From positions 2,802 to 66,801 of IMG/VR virus record IMGVR_UViG_3300036939_000059: 64,000 bases of DNA; one strand, written 5' to 3'. The first letter of the stretch is position 1, and the number at the start of each line of letters is the position of its first letter. A program made the translations under genes and the position numbers. Below are positions 2,163 to 34,995 of this stretch, in pieces. Origin of the DNA: a virus. The notes beneath the pieces were generated by a model. It saw only the letters and a list, made by a program, of their open reading frames with translations, did not search any database and was not told where the DNA came from.

Positions 2163-3056
2163 CTACACTGGCGCTGCCATCACCGATTCAATCCAAGCGA
2201 TCGCCGCATCTCCAACGCTTACCCCACTAGCCCTTAGGACCTGCACTTTCCCTTGGTAGCTGGCGCGGGCGTTCTCTTCGGTTGGGAAATGGGATTTAGC
2301 CCAGCCAACCGCTAAGTTTTCCACCAACCGAACAAATAGATCTGGCGGCAAGTCAGACGGCGCTTCACACTCATAATGCTTGCACCAATCAGCGATCGCT
2401 TTTGGGTTGTGCCCCGTTTTCTCCCGAATTTTCTTGATAGCCGCATTTTGTTGGGGGTAAAGAGAAGGGTGCGAGACTGGGGCTACAACCTTAAGTTGAG
2501 GCGAACCACCGCTCAGGGCTTCCAACAAGTCACCGTTCTCGCTCTTTGGTCTGGGTCGAGCTTTTTTAGCTGGCTCACCCTTTTCATCCTGCACCCAGCC
2601 ATTGTTGTAAGCCGCTTGGTAAGCTCGCCCATCGCCCTTCCCCCGCATATACTTGACAAAGCTGTCGCGGCTCTTTTTCTGGTCATCTAGATACGCCCCA
2701 ATCCCAAACTGTTCAGCCGCATCCCGGAAGGCATGACGCGCCGCATTGACGACGGGAGAGCCAATAATCTTCTCCTTGCCGTCGTCATTCAATTCTGGGA
2801 AAACTTTGCTGTCAGCAATCCCTTCTCTCGTCACTCCACAAATCGTCAAGCGGCAAATCATTACCGTTTCATTGCCACTCAAAAACGGTCCCTTCAGTTC
2901 GTCACTCCAATCGCTAGGACAAATTTCATTAAGGCGATCACGGATAGCTTGATGGGGCAAATAGAACCATTTACTTCCACCGGGAAGCTTGCGTTCTTTG
3001 TGAGCTTCAGGGGGGAACCAAGCGGCAAGTTGACGCAGGATGTCGTCTAAATTCAT
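2163..3056 (-). CDS. Rad52/Rad22-family single-strand annealing protein (Sak-like)
   Basis: FYLPHQAIRDRLNEICPSDWS, CRLTICGVTREG, AFRDAAEQFGIGAYL match the Rad52_Rad22 pattern. Confidence 0.85.
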   Translation of the reverse strand: MNLDDILRQLAAWFPPEAHKERKLPGGSKWFYLPHQAIRDRLNEICPSDWSDELKGPFLSGNETVMICRLTICGVTREGIADSKVFPELNDDGKEKIIGSPVVNAARHAFRDAAEQFGIGAYLDDQKKSRDSFVKYMRGKGDGRAYQAAYNNGWVQDEKGEPAKKARPRPKSENGDLLEALSGGSPQLKVVAPVSHPSLYPQQNAAIKKIREKTGHNPKAIADWCKHYECEAPSDLPPDLFVRLVENLAVGWAKSHFPTEENARASYQGKVQVLRASGVSVGDAAIAWIESVMAAPV

Positions 3057-3247
3057 TGTTCGTTTTCTCCTTAAAAGTTAAGACAGGCACTTTACGCCTG
3101 CCGGATTGATTGACCTTAGTTAATTAATTGAATTGTCAATATTTTAAGGCCTTATTGATTGCGCCATAACCGCGATACGTCGCGGTTATCTATCACATGA
3201 ATTGGCAAGATTAGTAATAGTATGAACGTGTAGATAAACACCCTGAC

Positions 3248-3284
3248 AAAAGGTTCAGCAATAGAGAGTAGCTGAACCTTTTTT
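3248..3284. terminator. Bidirectional intrinsic terminator
   Basis: AAAAGGTTCAGC-N11-GCTGAACCTTTT with A/T tails. Confidence 0.7.
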
Positions 3285-3289
3285 ATTAC

Positions 3290-3424
3290 CTATTTGTCTT
3301 TTTCAGTTTCTAATTCCGCTTGAGCGTCAGCAATATTGTCAGCCAGCTCAATTGCTCCTTCAAAATCACCATTCTCAATCGCTTCAATTACGATTTCCTT
3401 GAGTTCTTCGATGTCAATAGTCAT
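3290..3424 (-). CDS. Small acidic protein, 44 aa (not in ORF track)
   Basis: Hand-translated MTIDIEELKEIVIEAIENGDFEGAIELADNIADAQAELETEKDK*; GGAG upstream, terminator downstream. Confidence 0.55.
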   Translation of the reverse strand: MTIDIEELKEIVIEAIENGDFEGAIELADNIADAQAELETEKDK

Positions 3425-3537
3425 GATAGGAATGCTCCATGTAGTTGTGGGGTGAGAGCGATCGCTTGTTTCTTGGTGGGAGGAGCGATCGCTTTGCGCT
3501 ACCCGTTGGGGTAATCGCTTAATAATGTCGCTGTGGT

Positions 3538-4194
3538 CTAGTGCAAGAGGCTTGAGCGAATCTCTTTAGCATTCTGGTAACACTGCCGAATCGCTAAGAT
3601 TTCGCGAGTATCAGCATTAACCACCAAGAACTTATCTAGCCCCAAAGGCACGTAATCGCAGTGGTTAAGGTTCCAGATTTGGATGCTGGTCGTTTCGTAG
3701 TAGACCTTCTTAGGCTGAACGTCTGGCGCTTTTAGGCTTTGCACCTCTGGTTCAGGTAAGTCAATCGTTGCGGCAATCACAGCCTGTTGAGCCGGATTAG
3801 GTGAACAATGCCACGATTTTGCTCCGTCGATGGGGCGTGCTAGCCAACCCGCTGAGGTTCGGTGCATGGTTCCCAGCAGGGCTGAACCAGACCAAATCCG
3901 GTACGAGTCGAACTTGATGGAATCGATTTCAATTCCAAGCGGGGTAGCGGCGACAACCTGGGAGAACTGCTCTTGCTCAGTGGCGCGGGAATCAGCCTTT
4001 TCAAGTCCCGCTTCAATCTGCATCACGTAGTCGGCATCAGCGGTATCTGCTTGAGCTAAGGCGCTCTCGCAATCGGTTGTTGTTTCCCAGTGACCGCGTA
4101 CCACTTGGCTGTGCTGGTTGTGTTCGGCGGAGCAGACGTAGCGATCGCCGTCTAGATGGCGGGCGAAAGGGCAGGTAGCGCAGGTTTGTGTCAT
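3538..4194 (-). CDS. Hypothetical protein with N-terminal Cys/His motif
   Basis: MTQTCATCPF..RYVC..H..C; start moved to the internal ATG. Confidence 0.6.
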   Translation of the reverse strand: MTQTCATCPFARHLDGDRYVCSAEHNQHSQVVRGHWETTTDCESALAQADTADADYVMQIEAGLEKADSRATEQEQFSQVVAATPLGIEIDSIKFDSYRIWSGSALLGTMHRTSAGWLARPIDGAKSWHCSPNPAQQAVIAATIDLPEPEVQSLKAPDVQPKKVYYETTSIQIWNLNHCDYVPLGLDKFLVVNADTREILAIRQCYQNAKEIRSSLLH

Positions 4195-4371: not shown

Positions 4372-4647
4372 TTGAGTTCAATGACAGACATGGAAGGATT
4401 GCTGGCTCAGGCTGGCGTAACGAGAGAAGACTTAGCTTTGCAACTGGACGTTAGTGGCACAACGATAAGAAATTGGATTGGGGGAAGAACCGCCCCCACG
4501 CTGAACCCAGAGCAATACGAAACACTGCTAAAACTGTTAGGAGCAACACCAGCAGAATTAACAGCCGCATGGAAAGAATCAACGGCAAATAGAGTCAAAC
4601 GCAAGCCGGGGAGGAAAAAGCGTAATGACAAAAAATCAAAGGAGTAA
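4372..4647 (+). CDS. XRE-family HTH regulator (Cro-like)
   Basis: TREDLALQLDVSGTTIRNWIGGRTAP; divergent promoter region has the inverted repeat AAAATCAATT-N13-AATTGATTTT (4311-4343). Confidence 0.85.
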   Translation: MSSMTDMEGLLAQAGVTREDLALQLDVSGTTIRNWIGGRTAPTLNPEQYETLLKLLGATPAELTAAWKESTANRVKRKPGRKKRNDKKSKE

Positions 4648-4650
4648 CAG

Positions 4651-5487
4651 TTGATGAACGACATCACTCGTCCTGCGTTGCGGTATCCTGGCGGCAAATT
4701 CCGCGATGGTTACTGGATTATCAGCAACTTCCCTCGGCACCTAACCTACTGCGAACCCTTTGGAGGGGGCGGCTCAGTGCTACTACTCAAACAACCCTCG
4801 ACCTACGAGTTCTACAACGACCTCGACGGGGAAGTGGTGAATTTCTTCAAGATGCTGCGCGACAAGGGCAGCGAACTAATTGAGAAAATTCAGCTCACGC
4901 CATACAGCCGGGTGGAGCAAGAATTAGCTCGTTTCCCTGATGGAGACGAACTAGAGCGTGCTAGAAGGTTTTACACGCGCAGTTGGCAAACTATGAACGG
5001 TGCTGAGCATCGTTACGATTCTGGCTGGCGCAATCTCTACAGACGTAGTCGCGGCTCTAACGTAGTTCGCGAATGGAACAACGTCGAACACTTACACGCG
5101 ATCGCATGGCGATTGAAGCAGGTTCAGATCGAAAACCGTCCAGCGTTGGATTTGGTTAAGCGCATTGATACAGAGGAGACGCTGTTTTACTTCGATCCGC
5201 CCTATGTAAAAAGTACAAGGGCAAAAAATCATCGGGATATGTACAAGTTTGAATTAAACGATGCTGACCATCGGCAAATAGCAGAGGTGGTTCACTCACT
5301 ATCTGGGATGAGCATTATTTCTGGATATGACTGCGAACTGTATCAAGAACTCTACAAGGACTTCTATCTGGTAAAAAAGAAGACCACTAAAAACCACGGT
5401 AAGACTGCTGTGGAATGCCTTTGGCTTTCTCCAAATGTTGCAGCAAGGCAGCAGCAGTTAAGTCTGTTTGAGGTGCAATATGGTTAG
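4651..5487 (+). CDS. dam: DNA adenine methyltransferase, Dam/D12 class
   Basis: LRYPGGK, YCEPFGGGGSV, YNDLDGEVVNFF and catalytic FDPPY motifs. Confidence 0.92.
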   Translation: MMNDITRPALRYPGGKFRDGYWIISNFPRHLTYCEPFGGGGSVLLLKQPSTYEFYNDLDGEVVNFFKMLRDKGSELIEKIQLTPYSRVEQELARFPDGDELERARRFYTRSWQTMNGAEHRYDSGWRNLYRRSRGSNVVREWNNVEHLHAIAWRLKQVQIENRPALDLVKRIDTEETLFYFDPPYVKSTRAKNHRDMYKFELNDADHRQIAEVVHSLSGMSIISGYDCELYQELYKDFYLVKKKTTKNHGKTAVECLWLSPNVAARQQQLSLFEVQYG

Positions 5488-10235: not shown

Positions 10236-10798
10236 TCCCAACTACCACAACCATCAGCCAACTGATCAGGGAGATCCAAAGCTTAATTGAACTCCAGAAA
10301 AACCTAGAGGGACAGCGGAAAAATATCCACGCCGACGAAATAGCCCTGCTTTTCTCGACCGGAGCCAAGATTGAACAGCTCAAAAAGGCTTGTACCAAGC
10401 ACGGGGACTACAAACCATTGCTTATGGCTGCCGGACTGAACTGGACCACAGCAGACCGCCAGCACAAAACATTCCTGCTGTTTGGAGAGTATCGCAACAC
10501 CCCCTGGATCTTGAACTTTGGCAAATCCGCACTGATGGAACTGAGTTATCACAACTTCAAAAAAGACAACAACCGCGCCATTGGACTCGTTGCCGAAGCG
10601 ATAGAGCTTGCCAAGTCTGGCACAGAAATCGGCGTCGCTTGGGTCAACGCTCGGATTGAAGGGCGACGGGCAGCAGCGGGAATCAGGCGAACTCGAATGA
10701 GCGCTCGTGTTCGCAAGGCGATCCACGCAGCAATTGACCAGCACGGGGAAGAGAAGGTGTTGGAGGCGATCAGTGCTCTAGGGGGGGTGGAGTCGTGA
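10223..10798 (+). CDS. DUF3102-like protein
   Basis: GAKIEQLKKACTKHGDYKPLL..LNWTTADR pattern. Confidence 0.5.
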   Translation: MQTIIPTTTTISQLIREIQSLIELQKNLEGQRKNIHADEIALLFSTGAKIEQLKKACTKHGDYKPLLMAAGLNWTTADRQHKTFLLFGEYRNTPWILNFGKSALMELSYHNFKKDNNRAIGLVAEAIELAKSGTEIGVAWVNARIEGRRAAAGIRRTRMSARVRKAIHAAIDQHGEEKVLEAISALGGVES

Positions 10799-11889
10799 GC
10801 AATACGGCTACTGCTCTCTACAAAGCGCTCCACAAAAAACGCGCTTACACCAAGCTTTACTGGGACATCGCCAACGTCATCGGCATCAATGAAGCTCTGC
10901 TAATCGAAGTTGTCGAAAGATGGTGCCAAATCAATGAGGAGAAAGGACAAGCCTATTACTTTCACGAAGGGGAGTGGTGGACATCTGCCAGCTACAAACA
11001 ATGGGAGGAGATGTATCCAGCCCTCGGAAGTGATCGAAAAATCCAGAGAGCCTTCTTGAAACTGACGGAGGAGAATTACATCCTCTCTTGTCAGCCAAAC
11101 CGAAAGCAAGGTAATCCGACCAAGTACTACAGAGTAAATGCTGAAGCTATTGGCGAACTACTGCTAAACGGAAAATCTCAGGGGGGGTTAGTGCCAAATC
11201 TGGATGAAGGGTTAGTGCCAAATCTGGATGAAGTTAACGACAATTTGGCACTAACCTTAGTGCCAAATCTGGATGAACAATATATAGAAGATCAGATCAA
11301 TAGATCAGATCAATTAATCAGATCAGTAATCCCCCCTACCCCCCACAGGGGAAACGAGAGCGAACCAACTTCCACGGTTGAGATTGTCGAGGAAGAGGTA
11401 AGCCCACCTCCCTTGCAAGAAGAAATCAGCCAATTAATTCTTTTCACTGGCAATACAGATTCTGGTTTAGATCGTTCTTCCGGGCACGTTGCAACAAAGC
11501 AAAAGCAGCAAGTTGACTATCAGCCTCTTATTGACTTGTACAACGAATACAAGCCAGCTTTGTGGCGCAAATCGTCGCTGACACCGGATAGGGAGCGATC
11601 GCTTAAACAGCTTTTCAACCTGCACAAAGAGGCATTAGCTGAAAAGATGATCGACGCCCTCAAGTGGGCAGAGTCTGATGAGTTTTGGTCAGGACGCAAG
11701 AACGTCAAATCAGGCTCAAAGAAAAAATTTGACATCGATACGTTAACCAGGGACGGCAGGGTTCAGAAGTGGGCAGAGTATCTAGCCGATGATGGGCAGT
11801 CTTTATCCCCGGAAAACCAAAAACTAGCCGAAGCTTACGCACACGTTTCAAATGCCTTGAATAGCACAGGAGGATTTTTCGATGATTAG
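10795..11889 (+). CDS. Phage replication initiator (lambda O-like organisation, internal iterons)
   Basis: N-terminal wHTH-like region (SDRKIQRAFLKLTEENYILS..NPTKYYRVN); internal LVPNLDE x3 encoded by DNA iterons; followed by a loader-like gene. Confidence 0.75.
   Translation: MSNTATALYKALHKKRAYTKLYWDIANVIGINEALLIEVVERWCQINEEKGQAYYFHEGEWWTSASYKQWEEMYPALGSDRKIQRAFLKLTEENYILSCQPNRKQGNPTKYYRVNAEAIGELLLNGKSQGGLVPNLDEGLVPNLDEVNDNLALTLVPNLDEQYIEDQINRSDQLIRSVIPPTPHRGNESEPTSTVEIVEEEVSPPPLQEEISQLILFTGNTDSGLDRSSGHVATKQKQQVDYQPLIDLYNEYKPALWRKSSLTPDRERSLKQLFNLHKEALAEKMIDALKWAESDEFWSGRKNVKSGSKKKFDIDTLTRDGRVQKWAEYLADDGQSLSPENQKLAEAYAHVSNALNSTGGFFDD
11188..11325. repeat. Putative replication origin: iterons plus GATC cluster
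   Basis: TTAGTGCCAAATCTGGATGAA at 11188, 11212 and 11257; inverted partial copy 11243-11256; five GATC in an AT-rich tract 11290-11325. Confidence 0.75.
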
Positions 11890-12588: not shown

Positions 12589-12789
12589 ATGCAGGACTAC
12601 TCCGACTTAATCCATTCTTGCCGCCAAGAGCTTCACCGCGTCGGACTGAATTGGAGGTCACCCCGCGTCTTGGATTTTTGCGATCGCGCCACAGGTCACC
12701 GAGACGCCCATTACCTAGAGCCAGTACATCTCCAGATGCTACTGACCAAACTGCAATCCGAACCTACGCCACAAAAGGAAGCCGCATGA
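12589..12789 (+). CDS. Hypothetical protein
   Basis: 66-aa ORF coupled to both neighbours. Confidence 0.55.
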   Translation: MQDYSDLIHSCRQELHRVGLNWRSPRVLDFCDRATGHRDAHYLEPVHLQMLLTKLQSEPTPQKEAA

Positions 12790-13235
12790 TGAACAGCAAA
12801 CAACTAGAGCTACTTCAATCGCCCCCACCTCCCGCTATTAAAGCCCTCAGCTTGAAACAGCCCTACGCCTGGGCATTGTTCAACGGCAAAGACATTGAAA
12901 ACCGCACGTGGCGAACCAATCACCGAGGCTTACTGCTAATCCACGCCTCTGTATCTAAGTCACACCGTTACTGGAATGAAGCTTGTGAGGTCTGCCGCAA
13001 CCAAGGATTAATTATTCCTGGTAAGGCATCCCTCACCTACGGCGCAATCATCGGAGCCGTTGACGTAGCCGACTGTCGCTGGGGAGAAGAAGCCAACGGC
13101 TGGGGCTTTGCCCAACATTGGCACTGGAAGATCGAGAACCCCAGATTATTCAAAGAGCCAATTCCGATGAAGGGTGGGCTGAGCTTTATGAAAACTGACT
13201 TGACCCTACAGGAGGTCAGCGCCTTATGTCAGTAA
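12786..13235 (+). CDS. ASCH domain protein
   Basis: ALSLKQPYAWALFNGKDIENRTWRTNHRGLLLIHAS; start moved to ATG 12786. Confidence 0.9.
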   Translation: MMNSKQLELLQSPPPPAIKALSLKQPYAWALFNGKDIENRTWRTNHRGLLLIHASVSKSHRYWNEACEVCRNQGLIIPGKASLTYGAIIGAVDVADCRWGEEANGWGFAQHWHWKIENPRLFKEPIPMKGGLSFMKTDLTLQEVSALCQ

Positions 13236-15610
13236 AGCGCGATGCGTCGCGGTTATCTCAACAACCGATTGAGGAAATGAACGGTTTTAAGATAGGCGAT
13301 CGCGTCATTGAAGACAGCAACAATCCAGATTGGGGCGTGAAAATCGATTCTTTGATTAAGCACGCAGAGATTTTAGGTTTTCGCCCTAGCTATTTTGGCA
13401 GCGACACAATTTTCCCTTGGGTTCGTGACAGTAATGGGGCTGAAAGTTTTGCCCTTTGGGAGTGCTTGTCTCATGACGCAGGCTACCAGTCCTCAGCTAC
13501 CCCGTGCGTGGGAGACGCTCGAAGGGAAAGCGAAGAAGCTTTTAAGGAAGTCGTCGAAGCTTTGTCTAATCCCGCTCCGACAACCAAAGAAAAACAATGC
13601 TCGCAATGCTCGACAAATTTGCAGGAATCGGAGGAGCCACTATCGCCGGCGACTGGCTTGGAATCAAAACCACTCAGTTTGTTGAAATCGACCCCGACGC
13701 TCAAGCCGTCCTCCGACACTACTACCCCAGCATCCCAATCCACCCTGACATCAGAACCTATCATCCCAAACCCAGAGAACACGACATCCATTGGAATTCA
13801 TTCCCCTGTACAGGTACATCCAGTGCTGGAACTCGCGCAGGACTTAATCACGTTGAATCCCGTCTTTGGTTTGAGGCCTTGCGATGCGTCGTCGAGGGGC
13901 ATCCAAAATTCGTGGTTATTGAAAATCCTGAGGGACTCATCCACCGAGGTCTTCGAGCAGTCCTTGGCGGACTCCGAATGGCAGGCTATGCGTGGGACGA
14001 TCCGCAGCTCATATCGGCGTCTTGGCTTGGCGCTGTGCACCGCAGAAACCGACTCTTCATTGTTGCCTACCCCAACGAGTTACTCAGAAGGTTCCGACAC
14101 CCACCGACCCGCTGGGACGAACAAATTAGAGCGAACGTTGAAGCTTCTTCCCACTCCAGTGGCACGGGACGGGAAGGGTCGAACGGGCACACCCAACGAG
14201 TCATTGACCGAACCGATTCAGGAATACTTAACGGGAACGGACAAAATGCACCCAGCAGTTCCGGGTTGGATGATGGGGTTCCCGCCTGGTTATGCGGAAA
14301 AGATTTCAATGGCTGGTGGCGCGACAATCCAGCCCCACGATACCCAGGCGTTGCGGCCAGAACCCCAGGACGCCGAGCCTGTATCAAGCTCTACGGCAGA
14401 GCTGTCATGCCCCAACAAGCCGCGATCGCACTCCGTCGAGTCCTTTACCTCAATTCCCTCCTTACCTAAAATGCTTTGCACTATCAAACAGCCCGGTCAA
14501 CCTGAATTGATCGGAACAATCGCCCAGGACTTAGGCAGTGAGTTCTCGATTCGTATTGAAGGGTCAGAACAGCCCGTCACCGTTCCCAAGCTCTACGTAT
14601 TTCCTGGCTCCCAAAAACCTCAATCACCTGAGCCTACTTGGAAAGAGGGCGATCGCGCCTACTACCAGAATCAGCCTTGTACCATTCTTGTCCCAGTGGG
14701 CAGGGGTAAGTGCGTCAATAAGACCAAAATTGCCACAGCAGAAGACTTTGAGGGTTTCTGGGTTCCTACAACCGACTTGGCAGCGGCGAGTGACAACCCC
14801 AACCCAAAACCGCGATGCGCCGCGCCTATCGCTCAGGCGAACGACCTTTTAATACTTGATGCCGCCCAGTCTCAGTTGAAAGAACAGATCGCCAAATTCA
14901 AAGGCGATCGCAAAAAAAACAAAGCTCTAAAGAATTGTGAAGCTCACCTCGAAAACATTCAGGAGCTACGCGCTGTTGTCGAACAGGGTCAGCCCCTGGT
15001 TGGGATGTGGGTCACCAAACAAATTCCCGATTTTAATTGCGTCGGGCAAATCATTGAGGCGAATTCGGGTGAGCAATCGACGTGGGTGCAATGGTGGGGG
15101 AATCCCACGCCCTATCCAGAACAACTAGGCATCCTAACTTGGGACGAATTCGCCCAGACCACAACGCTTGAACCTAACAGCAAGATTCGTATTATTCCGG
15201 GGCACAAGACTTTGAAGCCCGGAACCCTATTCCAAGTTCAGGATCTGCACGCCAATGGCTGGGTCTTGACCACTGACGACCAGTTAATTTCTAGTAAGTA
15301 TTGGGAGGTAGCTGATGACGAATCCCAACCCCAACCGACCGACACAAGTAGTTTTGAGATTCCTGAACCAGCCGAAGACATTCCAGCAACTGAAGCAGGA
15401 AGTCCCGCTCAAGACTTGTTCCTTGAAGGCCTCCCTAGGGATTCTGATTTCCCAAGGGAGGGTCAGGTACAGCTACAAGATGAGACTGTACAGGCGGACT
15501 TGAAAGACGCGGGGACAGAGGAGGAAAACGATTTGGTCTATCGTCAGCTCCTACAAATGGGCATCCCCCCAGCCCAGGCTCGGTACTTAGCTAGCCAAGG
15601 AGTACGGTAA
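13226..15610 (+). CDS. 794-aa protein carrying the putative C5-MTase beta segment (TRD plus motif IX) with long extensions
   Basis: GGAGG RBS; LLPTP..LLPTPVARDGKG..MHPAVPGWMMGFPPGY at 14060-14293; short SH3/KOW-like segments (FKIGDRV, WKEGDRAYY). Confidence 0.75.
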   Translation: MSVKRDASRLSQQPIEEMNGFKIGDRVIEDSNNPDWGVKIDSLIKHAEILGFRPSYFGSDTIFPWVRDSNGAESFALWECLSHDAGYQSSATPCVGDARRESEEAFKEVVEALSNPAPTTKEKQCSQCSTNLQESEEPLSPATGLESKPLSLLKSTPTLKPSSDTTTPASQSTLTSEPIIPNPENTTSIGIHSPVQVHPVLELAQDLITLNPVFGLRPCDASSRGIQNSWLLKILRDSSTEVFEQSLADSEWQAMRGTIRSSYRRLGLALCTAETDSSLLPTPTSYSEGSDTHRPAGTNKLERTLKLLPTPVARDGKGRTGTPNESLTEPIQEYLTGTDKMHPAVPGWMMGFPPGYAEKISMAGGATIQPHDTQALRPEPQDAEPVSSSTAELSCPNKPRSHSVESFTSIPSLPKMLCTIKQPGQPELIGTIAQDLGSEFSIRIEGSEQPVTVPKLYVFPGSQKPQSPEPTWKEGDRAYYQNQPCTILVPVGRGKCVNKTKIATAEDFEGFWVPTTDLAAASDNPNPKPRCAAPIAQANDLLILDAAQSQLKEQIAKFKGDRKKNKALKNCEAHLENIQELRAVVEQGQPLVGMWVTKQIPDFNCVGQIIEANSGEQSTWVQWWGNPTPYPEQLGILTWDEFAQTTTLEPNSKIRIIPGHKTLKPGTLFQVQDLHANGWVLTTDDQLISSKYWEVADDESQPQPTDTSSFEIPEPAEDIPATEAGSPAQDLFLEGLPRDSDFPREGQVQLQDETVQADLKDAGTEEENDLVYRQLLQMGIPPAQARYLASQGVR
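13597..14469 (+). CDS. dcm: C5 DNA cytosine methyltransferase (alpha subunit) nested in another frame of 13226-15610
   Basis: Motif I FAGIGG, IV SFPC, VI IENPEG, VIII HRRNRLFIVA, X LYGRAVMPQQA; no motif IX in this frame. Confidence 0.92.
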   Translation: MLAMLDKFAGIGGATIAGDWLGIKTTQFVEIDPDAQAVLRHYYPSIPIHPDIRTYHPKPREHDIHWNSFPCTGTSSAGTRAGLNHVESRLWFEALRCVVEGHPKFVVIENPEGLIHRGLRAVLGGLRMAGYAWDDPQLISASWLGAVHRRNRLFIVAYPNELLRRFRHPPTRWDEQIRANVEASSHSSGTGREGSNGHTQRVIDRTDSGILNGNGQNAPSSSGLDDGVPAWLCGKDFNGWWRDNPAPRYPGVAARTPGRRACIKLYGRAVMPQQAAIALRRVLYLNSLLT

Positions 15611-15930
15611 TGCAGGATTCAGAATTGACTAAAGCCGCGATCGCTCTTGCCAATGCCACTGTTACCCTGACAGAGGCGATCGCGACAGTAAAAGAACTCC
15701 TCCAAAATCAAGTGAGCGATTCAGTGTGGCTCTCGCCTAAGCAAGCCGCAGCTCGACTGGGAGTAAAACCTATCTCGATTCTTTCCCGTATCCGAGATGG
15801 GCGCTACAAGCTAGGTGTCCACTATGTGAATACCTCAGACGGCGATCGCCCTACTTATCTCGTATCCCTAGGGGCTATTCAGAAGGAGATGACTAAGCCT
15901 CCTGAGAAGCGGAAGCCTGCCAAGAGATAA
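15610..15930 (+). CDS. Excisionase-like HTH protein
   Basis: WLSPKQAAARLGVKPISILSRIRDG..GVHY. Confidence 0.65.
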   Translation: MQDSELTKAAIALANATVTLTEAIATVKELLQNQVSDSVWLSPKQAAARLGVKPISILSRIRDGRYKLGVHYVNTSDGDRPTYLVSLGAIQKEMTKPPEKRKPAKR

Positions 15931-16020
15931 CCGCGATGCGTCGCGGGTTTGAGAGCGTGAAAAATTGACAAAATGTGATTCGCGCTCTTTTGTAACTTTT
16001 TTACACAACGAGGTTTTTGT

Positions 16021-16953
16021 ATGAAATATGCTTCGTCTATTCGATATGGCGGTGAGCTAATTGAGGCTAAGGATTGTGACTATGAAAGTTATAAACACCT
16101 TGGGTTGCTTTGTCCGGAGTGCAAAGACCCCGTGTTTTTAAAAGCTGAAGGGTTGCGAAGTTTAAAGGATAAAGATGTTAGGGTTGGGGCGCATTTCTCA
16201 CACTTCCCTGGCAAAGACCCTGCTATTGTCTTGGCTTGTGAGAATCGAATTAAGACTTACAGTAAAGAGGATTTGGAGCGCAGGGCTAATCAATCTCGTG
16301 GGCAGCGATTGAAGATGATTCAACGTTGGCTCTATGGAATAATTAAACACAGTCCGCTTTTTAAAGAAGGACAACAAAAGGCTGAGCAACTTGATTTTTT
16401 CTCTAGTGAGGGCGAGGATGACACCGATGAGTTTAGTAAGGCTGCAAAAAAACTTTTTGAGGAACGAGTCTTGAGCCTTTGTGAACATATTAAACAGGGG
16501 AAGCTGAAAGAAGCTGTAAGTAAAGAGTTTGACAAAGAAATAAATTTCGTTAGCTATTTAAAGGATTTAACTCAAAAAGTTTTTGGAGGAACTATTGACA
16601 AGGTAGAATTGCATTATTTGACGATTGAGCTAGGAGCCATATCACAAGAGAAGATGTCAGTCTTGCTTGGATTGACCAAGATAGATCGCCAGATGCAAAA
16701 GATGATTTGTTGCGAGGTCTTGGATTTCCTGTCAACTCCAAGAGCAAGACCGATATTGACTGAAATTTTTCTGGTTGCGTCGGCTTTAAATGAATTCGCT
16801 TATGCTGGTGAAATACCAGAAGATATCTACCGTTTATATGAATGGTCAAAAGACAAAGGTACTACTTCGTGTGTTTGTCAAATAATTGTTCGAGTATCAT
16901 GGCAATCTGAATTTGAAAGAATGAACCAGAATTCGTTATCTTTGTCGTATTAG
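16021..16953 (+). CDS. Hypothetical protein with CoiA-like N-terminal Zn motif
   Basis: LLCPECKDPVFLK..AHFSHF..C; AT-richer than neighbours. Confidence 0.55.
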   Translation: MKYASSIRYGGELIEAKDCDYESYKHLGLLCPECKDPVFLKAEGLRSLKDKDVRVGAHFSHFPGKDPAIVLACENRIKTYSKEDLERRANQSRGQRLKMIQRWLYGIIKHSPLFKEGQQKAEQLDFFSSEGEDDTDEFSKAAKKLFEERVLSLCEHIKQGKLKEAVSKEFDKEINFVSYLKDLTQKVFGGTIDKVELHYLTIELGAISQEKMSVLLGLTKIDRQMQKMICCEVLDFLSTPRARPILTEIFLVASALNEFAYAGEIPEDIYRLYEWSKDKGTTSCVCQIIVRVSWQSEFERMNQNSLSLSY

Positions 16954-32358: not shown

Positions 32359-34995
32359 ATGCGATCGCCCCGTCTCCACCTCGCTCACCGCCACACTGCT
32401 AGAAGTCAAGCCCGTTCCCTGTACGCGCTCTCTCCCACCGAGCAAATCCTTCTTGCTCGAAAAGACTTCAACGCTTTTCGCTGGTATGTCAAAAACCACA
32501 AATCTTACACGCACCACCAAGAGTGGTCGAGGTATCTCAACACCGACCTAAACAGCAGGTGCTTAAACGGTATTGCGGGCGATGACCTACTTATCCTTGC
32601 TCCGCGTGGTTCGTCAAAATCGACATTCTTAATTGAGTGGGTTGCCTACCAAATCGGGCGACACGCTGCGCCAGAGATTCGCCAAGCCCTCAAGGTGCTG
32701 TATGTGAGTTATGAATTGAAGACAGCGCGTCAGAAGTCTCAACAAATTAAGCGCCTGCTAACCTTGCCAGAGTATCGGCGTGTATTCCCGTGGATTCGAC
32801 CGGGAGAAAACTGGGCGAATGAGTTGTGGGAGATTGACTTTGCTCACGCTGGTTTGCCAGGGGCTGATGAACCCTACACTGTGGCAGCGGCGGGATTGAT
32901 TGGGAACGTCACAGGTAAAAGGTGCTTTGTTGGTGATACATTAATAGAGACCGAGATAGGCGCAGTACCCATCTCGGAAATTCAAAAATATATCACTCTC
33001 AGGATTTTAACTTTCAATGAATCAACCCACACCCTCGAATGGGGACGCATCAAGAACGTTGCGTCAAGACCCTCGAATGAACTTGTTGAAATTAGAACAA
33101 GTGGAGGGCGTAGAGTGCGCTGCACTGCCGACCACCCTATCTATACACTGGAACGAGGATACTCAGAGGCCCAGTATTTACTGGCAGGGGATACCCTTGT
33201 CGTCACTACCCAAGGAAAAGAAGAAATACAGAAGCTGCCTTGGATGCAGCAAGGAAATGACCAACACTTCGGCGCATATTTGCCAAGACTGCTATCAGGC
33301 TTCCAGGCAGGTGCGTTTCAGGATTCGCTGCAAGGGCTGTTCGTCGATCTTCCTTCTCAGTCCAAGCGAACTTCAAAAGAAGGTGAGAAGAGGGGGCTTC
33401 GAGTTCTTTTGCAGTCACAAGTGTCATGGAGACACCCGCAAGAAGCCAAAGGATTGCGAGAGCTGTGGAATGAGGCTTTGCTCTACATCCAGGGGAAAAA
33501 GAGGGAGGTTTTGCCCGGACTGCCTACAAAAAGCACGGACAGTGCGCACACTACAACCAGCCAAGTGCTTGAACTGCGATCGCTTGTTTGCCCCGCGAAC
33601 CAGCAAGACTCAGCATTGTTCTCAGGCTTGCGCCAATGCGACGCACTCAAGAAAGATGTCTGGGGAAGGCAACAGCCACTACAAAGATGGACAGAGTTAC
33701 GGCAAGGATTTTCTCGACTTGAGAGCGGCTGCCTTGAGTCGGGATGGCTACCGTTGCACTGCTTGCGGGATTACGGAAATAATCGAACCCAAGGGCAGGT
33801 GGGGCAGGCTATCGAACCTAGTAGTCCATCACTTAAACCACGACCATTGCGACAATCGCCTTCAGAATTTGGCGACTATGTGTCGAGCGTGCCACGTCAT
33901 TCATCACAAAACGAAAAAGACTGGGGATTAGACAGGGTTGTCTCAGTTGTTAAACTTCCTGCCGTGACACAGGAAGTTTACGACATTGAGGTAGAAGGAA
34001 ACCACAACTTTTTCGCCAATCAAATACTATCGCACAATTGCCACATTTCAGTGTATGATGACTTAATTAAATCCCCAGAAGCGATCGCGAACCCCGACAT
34101 CCGTGAGCAGATGGTTTCCAACTATCGCAACATCATCAAGCCGACTCGCTTTGATGGCGCTCGCTCAATCTGTTTGGGGACGAGGATGCGACCGGATGAC
34201 ATTTATTGCACCGAGTTCACGGCAGACAATGACTGGCAAGTTGTTGAGCAATCCGCAATCCTCGACCTTCCCGATGGTGGGGAGTGTAGTTACTGGGAAC
34301 CCGAAGACGATGAATCCCCTGGTCAAACCCTTGCGTTCCTGCAAAGTATTCGGGAAAAAGAACCCGAAACATTCAGCTACCAGTACCAGAACAAAGTTAT
34401 CCGGATTGCTACCCAAGCCATTACTCCTGAACTAATCACTAAAGGTATCATCCCCTCTCAAATGGATTACTTGGCTTTGGGCATAGACCTATCCGCAGGC
34501 GAACGCGAGGTCAACGACTACACCGCTTTTGTCCTAGGGGGTATGGCGCGGGACGAAAAGGGACGCAATCGCTATTTTATTATCGACTGCTGGGAAGATA
34601 GACTGATGGGCAACATGAAGAAGTTAGAGGCGATCGCTGTCCTCTACGACTGTTGGCGACACCTCTGTCCTTACCTTGAATTATTTGTGGAGTCCAACGG
34701 CTACCAGCTTAGTTTTGCGGGAGACTACCAGGACTTTGTTGCCGAGAAGGAATACTACGACTGGCAAGTCACAGCGGTTCACTCTGCCGAGAAAAAACTT
34801 GAGCGACTGCGGGGCGTCACTGGGTTACTGGAGAATAAACTGGTCACCTTTAATCAGTACGGGCGGCTGATGGGGAAACTTACCCTGCAACTGACCAACC
34901 ACGGAAGTACTAGCCATGATGACTTAGCCGACGCTTTTGAGAAATGTTTGAGAGGGTTGAGGGTGCGATCGCCTTTGACCGGGGCTAATTACTAA
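32359..34995 (+). CDS. terL: Terminase large subunit with intein
   Basis: Walker A LAPRGSSKST, Walker B ISVYDDLIK, RSICLGTR, nuclease LGIDLS..DYTA, VESNGYQ, HDDLADA. Confidence 0.93.
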   Translation: MRSPRLHLAHRHTARSQARSLYALSPTEQILLARKDFNAFRWYVKNHKSYTHHQEWSRYLNTDLNSRCLNGIAGDDLLILAPRGSSKSTFLIEWVAYQIGRHAAPEIRQALKVLYVSYELKTARQKSQQIKRLLTLPEYRRVFPWIRPGENWANELWEIDFAHAGLPGADEPYTVAAAGLIGNVTGKRCFVGDTLIETEIGAVPISEIQKYITLRILTFNESTHTLEWGRIKNVASRPSNELVEIRTSGGRRVRCTADHPIYTLERGYSEAQYLLAGDTLVVTTQGKEEIQKLPWMQQGNDQHFGAYLPRLLSGFQAGAFQDSLQGLFVDLPSQSKRTSKEGEKRGLRVLLQSQVSWRHPQEAKGLRELWNEALLYIQGKKREVLPGLPTKSTDSAHTTTSQVLELRSLVCPANQQDSALFSGLRQCDALKKDVWGRQQPLQRWTELRQGFSRLESGCLESGWLPLHCLRDYGNNRTQGQVGQAIEPSSPSLKPRPLRQSPSEFGDYVSSVPRHSSQNEKDWGLDRVVSVVKLPAVTQEVYDIEVEGNHNFFANQILSHNCHISVYDDLIKSPEAIANPDIREQMVSNYRNIIKPTRFDGARSICLGTRMRPDDIYCTEFTADNDWQVVEQSAILDLPDGGECSYWEPEDDESPGQTLAFLQSIREKEPETFSYQYQNKVIRIATQAITPELITKGIIPSQMDYLALGIDLSAGEREVNDYTAFVLGGMARDEKGRNRYFIIDCWEDRLMGNMKKLEAIAVLYDCWRHLCPYLELFVESNGYQLSFAGDYQDFVAEKEYYDWQVTAVHSAEKKLERLRGVTGLLENKLVTFNQYGRLMGKLTLQLTNHGSTSHDDLADAFEKCLRGLRVRSPLTGANY
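32923..34038 (+). mobile_element. Intein (372 aa) in terL just before Walker B
   Basis: Block A CFVGDTLIET, block B CTADHPIY, block F VYDIEVEGNHNFFAN, block G ILSHN/C. Confidence 0.95.
33017..33931 (+). CDS. HNH endonuclease with multiple Zn ribbons, in the +1 frame inside the intein
   Basis: RDGYRCTACG..VHHLNHDHCDNRLQNLATMCRACH; many CxxC pairs; true start uncertain. Confidence 0.85.
   Translation: MNQPTPSNGDASRTLRQDPRMNLLKLEQVEGVECAALPTTLSIHWNEDTQRPSIYWQGIPLSSLPKEKKKYRSCLGCSKEMTNTSAHICQDCYQASRQVRFRIRCKGCSSIFLLSPSELQKKVRRGGFEFFCSHKCHGDTRKKPKDCESCGMRLCSTSRGKRGRFCPDCLQKARTVRTLQPAKCLNCDRLFAPRTSKTQHCSQACANATHSRKMSGEGNSHYKDGQSYGKDFLDLRAAALSRDGYRCTACGITEIIEPKGRWGRLSNLVVHHLNHDHCDNRLQNLATMCRACHVIHHKTKKTGD

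Follow-up and report, generated by a model that had tools for sequence, protein, structure and literature searches.

A putative cytosine-5 DNA methyltransferase split between two overlapping frames, with the catalytic gene enclosed in a long beta-frame open reading frame, in an uncultured cyanobacterial phage

In the present study, a 64,000-nucleotide (nt) stretch of viral DNA (positions 2,802 to 66,801 of IMG/VR record IMGVR_UViG_3300036939_000059; hereafter the window) was analysed around a pair of same-strand open reading frames (ORFs) that appear to encode one cytosine-5 (C5) DNA methyltransferase between them. Several findings have been revealed. First, the parts of the predicted enzyme are split between two frames, with the catalytic motifs in a nested chain, here called alpha, and motif IX in the frame of a much longer ORF, here called beta-long. 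Second, the nesting is reversed, and the whole alpha gene lies inside the beta-frame ORF. Third, the locus is a reversed-nesting version, with a multi-domain beta chain, of the alpha/beta design known from M.EcoHK31I. We consider it fairly probable that two chains, alpha and beta-long (the latter started at 13226 or 13277), assemble via a beta core into a cytosine methyltransferase modifying phage DNA, and that the end domains of beta-long are accessory anchors gained through loss of the beta stop codon. The coordinates of the features are collected in Table 1.

Table 1. Features of the two-frame locus and its immediate neighbours (positions in the window; aa, amino acids; pLDDT, predicted local distance difference test of the structural model)
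Feature	Position	Strand	Basis or remark
Upstream gene, phrog_3193 (function unknown)	12780-13235	+	E-value 6e-36; end overlaps the long-ORF start by 10 nt
GGAGG Shine-Dalgarno-like site	13211-13215	+	10 nt before ATG 13226
Long ORF, beta-long, 794 aa	13226-15610	+	no stop in 794 codons
Predicted N-terminal small beta-barrel, aa 18-100 of the long ORF	13277-13525	+	ESM Atlas model
Linker 1, aa 105-245 of the long ORF, S/T/P/E/Q-rich	13538-13960	+	overlies alpha motifs I-VIII
Alpha, predicted C5 DNA methyltransferase catalytic chain, 290 aa	13597-14469	+	wholly nested, -1 frame of the long ORF
Beta core, aa 248-365 of the long ORF	13967-14320	+	SEW..G segment, LLPTP repeats, motif IX
Alpha residues 190-258, loop between catalytic domain and motif X helix	14164-14370	+	pLDDT 35-60
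Alpha motif X helix (RRACIKLYGRAVMPQQAAIALRRV...)	14371-14466	+	pLDDT 93
C-terminal part, aa 416-794 of the long ORF	14471-15607	+	homologous to stand-alone P0012
Predicted helical hairpin and two small Tudor/KOW/SH3-like barrels, aa 535-700	14828-15325	+	AlphaFold pLDDT 80-95
Predicted C-terminal helical hairpin (..YRQLLQMGIPPAQARYL..) after an acidic disordered stretch	15518-15607	+	pLDDT ~80
Downstream gene, weak excisionase-like helix-turn-helix (HTH)	15610-15930	+	phrog_539, E-value 7.5e-4; ATG shares one base with the long-ORF stop

The catalytic chain had been recognised in the first-pass annotation of the window, and that reading was upheld here: motifs I (FAGIGG), IV (FPC), VI (ENP), VIII (RRNR) and X (YGRAVMP) were found in alpha, and inspection of the alpha protein revealed no motif IX, no MGFP and no xPTP/LLPTP repeat. 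Alpha matches phrog_363 end to end (E-value 1e-56), Pfam DNA_methylase PF00145 over residues 4-178 only (1e-25) and M.HhaI over residues 11-187 (5e-33). The motif IV cysteine, the motif VI glutamate and the RxR of motif VIII (C71, E109, and R150 and R152) do not vary among 50 relatives, and neither do G267 and P272 of the motif X helix. By family profile and catalytic residues alpha belongs with the C5 methyltransferases, and cytosine-5 methylation is its predicted activity. When alpha was modelled alone with AlphaFold, residues 1-188 and 259-289 were confident and the loop of residues 190-258 was poor. This loop overlies the second LLPTP repeat and motif IX of the other frame, and alpha on its own is disordered where the beta frame is conserved.

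Motif IX and the LLPTP repeats lie in the overlapping long frame, as had been observed. Beta-long starts 371 nt upstream of alpha, ends 1141 nt downstream of it and consists of an N-terminal barrel, a linker, the beta core, a second linker and a C-terminal part; it is preceded by the GGAGG site noted in the first-pass annotation, and ATG 13277 (M18) is a possible alternative start. The remaining two frames over its span hold 31 and 41 stops. A Pfam search of the whole long ORF returned nothing below an E-value of 0.01, and when the 794-aa product was searched by tblastn in 50,697 phage records, no match was obtained. The homology was found part by part: residues 277-364 match positions 159-286 of the 329 in phrog_1008, 'DNA methyltransferase' (E-value 5e-8), and align with residues 239-335 of Tweety gp72, between its motifs VIII and X (7e-7); a beta profile gave no significant match to PDB sequences. 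LLPTP repeats stand at 14060-14074 and 14144-14158, and motif IX, GWMMGFPPGY, at 14264-14293. These elements had been placed over the variable region of the nested gene, which holds for the second LLPTP repeat and motif IX, both over the alpha loop, but not for the first repeat, which shares its nucleotides with alpha motif VIII (IVAYP). The MMGFP of beta (14270-14284) is read from the codons of alpha DDGVP, and both pairings recur in Synechococcus phage S-H1. Where alpha is structured, the long ORF is of low complexity, with an STPQEGN content of 57-58% in residues 105-245 and 366-415.

The first-pass annotation had also pointed out that both frames stay open over the 873 nt of overlap, and two tests of this dual reading put it well beyond chance. 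The third frame has 12 stops across the same stretch. When one protein was held fixed and its synonymous codons were redrawn 20,000 times from window codon usage, fixing alpha gave a mean of 11 stops in the long-ORF frame, and the reverse resampling, with the long ORF fixed, gave a mean of 18 stops in the alpha frame; no draw was open in either direction (0/20,000 each). The phase of substitutions was then compared between the window and the related loci L004, L087 and L088 (three independent comparisons). Over long-ORF residues 126-275 and 351-400, which cover the alpha catalytic domain and motif X, changes occur at the third codon position of alpha; in linker 1 this position is the second position of beta, and it is there that the substitutions fall. 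Over residues 276-350, from LLPTP to motif IX, changes occur at the third codon position of beta, and just 4-16% of the beta amino acid sites differ in the two closest comparisons. Across 14164-14370 the first codon positions of alpha are free to vary. In addition, an extra LLPTP repeat of 84-90 nt in L004 and L087 leaves both frames open. This pattern indicates that selection acts in both frames and that the codon phase under constraint switches at the beta core.

Structural modelling of the two chains together, which the first-pass annotation had proposed, points in the same direction. The complex of alpha with long-ORF residues 225-365 was modelled in three runs with three controls, and the interaction prediction score from aligned errors (ipSAE) was 0.92 in the three runs compared with 0.00 for the best control. 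A score at this mark is seen in 58 of 80 solved complexes and in 2 of 110 mismatched pairs (rough counts, with custom alignments used). In the modelled interface, the first LLPTP and motif IX region of beta contacts the motif VIII and motif X regions of alpha.

The two-frame layout is also a property of the family. A survey using alpha alignment found 80 IMG/VR loci, among which 75 complete alpha ORFs were counted. In these relatives, frame 0 holds motif X in 71/75 and an xPTP repeat in 0/75, and the +1 frame holds xPTP repeats in 74/75; motif IX was detected in at least 53/75 by a narrower regular expression, which under-counts. The median open length of the +1 frame is 255 codons (171-496) compared with 24 for the +2 frame, and the +1 open length tracks alpha length (r = 0.94). 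Typically, a beta of 170-500 codons is nested in alpha, starts approximately 10-215 nt after the alpha start and ends 59-122 nt before the alpha stop; a beta frame running past alpha was seen in just one of the 75. S-H1 (MK105819) and Nodularia phages carry a nested +1 ORF of approximately 206-218 aa with LLPTP and an MGFP-type motif, and their alpha chains are 33-37% identical to that of the window (S-H1, 33%). The genome of Cylindrospermum sp. FACHB-282 carries a 150-aa nested beta (one locus from a single-protein scan), and in L004, whose alpha is 70% identical by tblastn, a beta of 347 aa extends from 56 nt before alpha to 25 nt after it. A split of the M.EcoHK31I type, with motif IX in the other frame, is conserved in distant relatives, and together with the codon-phase switch and the complex model this sustains the comparison with M.EcoHK31I drawn in the first-pass annotation. 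One locus, L050 (IMGVR_UViG_3300044701_003465, ~3001-3889), is an exception, with motif X in the +1 frame and an MGFP-like motif in +2; its +1 frame runs 238 nt beyond the frame-0 stop, and the locus may represent a true frameshift or a different arrangement.

The enclosing form of beta, in which, as the first-pass annotation had described, a much larger protein surrounds the beta-like segment, is not confined to the window. A protein search yielded the long relatives P0003-P0009 (654-1102 aa), and on their contigs, as well as on 15 further metagenome loci, a full-length alpha-frame match was found in the -1 frame of the long beta-frame ORF. Approximately 18 distinct metagenomic loci have a beta frame of 446-1105 codons that continues 280-1870 nt beyond the alpha stop. 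In the five long-form contigs with gene calls seen, the long ORF was called alone and the catalytic gene was left unannotated. The extra domains vary among the long-form loci and include a Dam adenine methylase domain (PF02086, E-value 2e-28, in P0003), phrog_3193 and Tudor/KOW-like barrels. A ParB-like reading of L005 and P0011 was made by eye, is unconfirmed and serves as a label only. Two further end types were observed: a conserved module of approximately 80 aa (..KGCLYKY.ENKKLK.G.IASYPRV...HWRWG..EEK.DGEWK.RS..) closes L096, L098, L100, L101, L102, L108, P0003-P0006 and P0009, and repeats resembling DUF6788 (a weak Pfam match, in P0017) end L097 and L103. The long protein of the window has neither.

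The extensions of beta-long were examined at both ends. At the N-terminus, an ESM Atlas model of residues 17-91 resembles small barrels of the CarD/TRCF-RID, PetP and YodC type, with template modelling (TM) scores by row of 0.6-0.66 on targets of 66-82 aa, which is weak evidence; an ESM Atlas feature search gave no usable match. The C-terminal part was compared with L092, to which it is 81% identical, and the differences at codon positions 1/2/3 numbered 44/25/67, with indels of 3 and 24 nt, indicating that this extension evolves as coding sequence in the long-ORF frame. Foldseek against the PDB matched the C-terminal model to tandem Tudor/KOW/Agenet domains (E-values 2e-4 to 5e-2), and against BFVD it returned uncharacterised proteins only, at low TM. 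These models weakly suggest that the extensions fold as small SH3/Tudor/KOW-like barrels, in line with the SH3/KOW-like segments that the first-pass annotation had read in them. Several other long proteins, P0011, P0013 and P0014 among them, have the hairpin-plus-barrel module at the N-terminus; Pfam gave nothing below an E-value of 0.01 for the module homologues P0011-P0014, P0016, P0018-P0020 and P0022, and just a sub-threshold DUF6788 match for P0017.

The closest counterpart of the C-terminal part is P0012, a stand-alone protein of 264 aa adjoining a DUF3987 primase/helicase-type gene in a cyanobacterial-type element. Residues 3-51 of the C-terminal part are 55% identical to residues 3-50 of P0012, and both marks of a P0012-like protein, the N-terminal module ML.CTI.QPGQPE... 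and the C-terminal tail YRQLL..G.PPAQARYL, are present. The same terminal hairpin tail closes P0012 and P0010. P0010, which at first suggested another such unfused gene, was dropped: its contig is truncated at the 5' end, with the frame continuing past the edge, and it is uninformative on fusion.

Compared with known systems, the nearest design is that of M.EcoHK31I (E. coli HK31, YGGCCR; Lee, Kam and Shaw 1995), in which both an alpha and a beta polypeptide are needed, alpha carrying motifs I-VIII as well as X, and beta, with motif IX, being read from the alpha gene in another frame (PMC2836561). Compared by description only, the likeness lies in the two-polypeptide C5 design, the alpha without motif IX and the placing of motif IX in the other frame. 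However, the M.EcoHK31I beta is approximately 60 aa and wholly inside alpha, whereas the beta-frame product here is 794 aa, encloses alpha, and adds LLPTP repeats and unrelated domains at both ends. The target recognition domain (TRD) of M.EcoHK31I is stated to reside in alpha (PMC2836561). At the present locus, the alpha variable region is predicted to be disordered and the conserved LLPTP repeats sit in beta, and we infer that these repeats are a TRD-like part carried by beta. Phages of the phrog_363 type (S-H1 and Nodularia phage vB_NpeS-2AV2) share the homologous alpha and the same frame relation, with the first LLPTP over motif VIII and MGFP over alpha DDG(V/L)P, but their beta lies inside alpha, whereas here it extends beyond both alpha ends. 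In the single-chain gp72 of Mycobacterium phage Tweety and phrog_1008, the catalytic domain, LLPTP, the MMG(W/F)P motif IX and motif X follow in the same order, but all of them belong to a single chain read in one frame. A C5 methyltransferase from a cyanobacterium, M.AquI of Synechococcus sp. PCC 7002, is likewise divided into two polypeptides inside the variable region; consecutive genes encode its subunits, motifs IX and X being in beta, and unlike the present locus it is not known to have a long dual-coding stretch. A search of the literature, in which many subscription journals were not covered, found the layout described nowhere beyond M.EcoHK31I and the long form nowhere.

Herein, we propose the following course of events for the locus. 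Ribosomes would start at ATG 13226 (or 13277) and produce an 87-kDa long protein that runs from the barrel through a linker over the alpha catalytic motifs, the beta core and a linker over motif X to the P0012-like tail, with its helical hairpin, two Tudor/KOW-like barrels, acidic stretch and terminal helical hairpin. Alpha, of 290 aa, would come from a separate initiation event in the -1 frame, at ATG 13597, and would combine an S-adenosylmethionine-binding/catalytic domain with the motif X helix through a disordered loop. The beta core would dock on alpha and supply the small-domain/DNA-recognition part that single-chain relatives hold in one frame, and the holoenzyme would methylate cytosines in phage DNA, presumably to escape host restriction, with the extra domains anchoring or scaffolding the enzyme. 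The fusion probably arose by loss of the beta stop codon and read-through into neighbouring genes. Tentatively, a further step may be considered: beta-long would be a docking hub whose overprinted core captures the alpha chain encoded within the hub's own gene. Through its exchangeable end domains (Tudor/KOW-like barrels here, Dam in P0003, phrog_3193 in P0005 and, by eye only, a ParB-like region in L005), the hub would link cytosine methylation with further DNA transactions in the replication module of the phage, and loss of the beta stop codon would be a recurrent route of fusion in the clade.

Several observations weigh against the proposed two-chain enzyme. Throughout the clade, motif IV is FPCT (not PCQ) and motif X is GR[AST]V (GRAV here, not GNxV); with these non-canonical motifs, the activity of alpha is not assured. 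The alpha start, ATG 13597, is preceded by an A-rich leader and has no Shine-Dalgarno site. In L097, alpha (4634-5470) has an in-frame stop from an insertion after ..AQAVLR, with the beta frame open for 552 codons, and in L103 alpha (222-983) is degenerate, without motif I and with an altered end, beside a beta frame of 483 open codons. The score of the complex may stem from single-chain methyltransferase folds that the structure predictor had memorised. L004 and Cylindrospermum (alpha identity not measured for the latter) do without the extensions, which are thus accessory, and the C-terminal part may be produced separately as well, or for the most part. The source biocrust metagenome is the sole sequencing run in which this DNA occurs, and the region was found in no RNA run.

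Three alternatives were weighed. The most serious, although improbable, is that the fusion has no function of its own, three former cistrons (for a small barrel protein, for beta and for a P0012-like protein) having come into frame by chance, and that the work is done by a beta shortened through internal initiation together with a C-terminal protein made on its own. ATG 14471, the first codon of the C-terminal part, stands 1 nt past the alpha TAA (14467-14469) and aligns with Met1 of P0012, and thus the C-terminal part may also be made alone via re-initiation after alpha termination; P0012 itself exists alone beside its DUF3987 gene, the betas of L004 and Cylindrospermum are short, and the nested beta of 170-500 codons is the norm of the family. 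However, there is no stop from 13226 to 15608, so that any ribosome starting upstream must make the fusion, and the N-terminal region is clearly coding, with 0 stops compared with 6 and 11 in the other frames. Moreover, approximately 18 loci keep long fused frames, an ATG at the alpha-stop junction was found in none of the other long-form loci, and the nearest in-frame ATG before the first LLPTP is M255, with none at the usual beta start position. As an observation in its own right, termination and re-initiation may take place at 14467-14473, which would yield a 379-aa product distinct from the fusion.

Two other alternatives would do away with a second chain or with the locus as a functional unit. 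A single polypeptide made through two programmed frameshifts, +1 into the beta core and -1 back to motif X, would resemble Tweety gp72; the order of segments (I-VIII, LLPTP, IX, X) is that of single-chain relatives, and the substitution phase switch fits such a product equally well. Yet frame 0 is open across the whole beta core in 75/75 relatives, for up to approximately 350 codons, and the +1 frame is open for approximately 150 codons upstream of the first LLPTP, the beta frame here reaching 794 codons. Such openness far beyond the switch points would be needless under double frameshifting and argues against it, and M.EcoHK31I works as two polypeptides (PMC2836561); we therefore regard this explanation as very unlikely. 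Even less credence is given to a decaying or chimeric locus, in which the overlap would come from frameshift mutations or assembly error and one or neither frame would function. The contig (67 kb, IMG/VR) is a metagenome assembly and the alpha genes of L097 and L103 are damaged, but the layout recurs in phage isolates (S-H1 and the Nodularia phages), in the Cylindrospermum genome and in dozens of independent contigs, indels preserve both open frames, and signatures of selection were seen in both. The two-chain enzyme with accessory end domains is thus the reading that we prefer. It retains the two-frame split, the larger protein and the barrels of the first-pass annotation and leaves its tether at the replication fork as a conjecture, for which the analysis gave just gene neighbourhood, namely the replication initiator gene at 10795-11886 and the P0012 homologue beside a DUF3987 gene.

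Several observations concern the surroundings of the pair. The phrog_3193 domain is a separate gene here and is fused to the beta-long C-terminus in relatives (P0005 residues 735-914, L089, E-value 2e-32); an 'ASCH-like' reading of it, made by eye and unconfirmed, is a label only. The genes after the long ORF (15610-16953) are syntenic with L005 (5848-7700), the excisionase-like HTH gene being followed by a weak CoiA_N/DUF7830 protein. A second nested same-strand pair is also present in the window, where an 878-aa ORF (32359-34995) contains a 304-aa ORF (33017-33931) in another frame.

With 873 nt read in two frames, both for one predicted enzyme, the overlap is among the longest same-strand overlaps proposed for phage, and in this uncultured cyanobacterial phage the catalytic gene is fully hidden inside the gene of its putative partner. 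The family may offer a natural series for the birth of overlapping genes, from the single chain to a nested beta, an enclosing beta and a beta fused with Dam or other domains, and its members would be naturally occurring scaffolds for split methyltransferases like those engineered from M.EcoHK31I (PMC2836561). Moreover, the methylation capacity of cyanophages and mobile elements has probably been under-counted.

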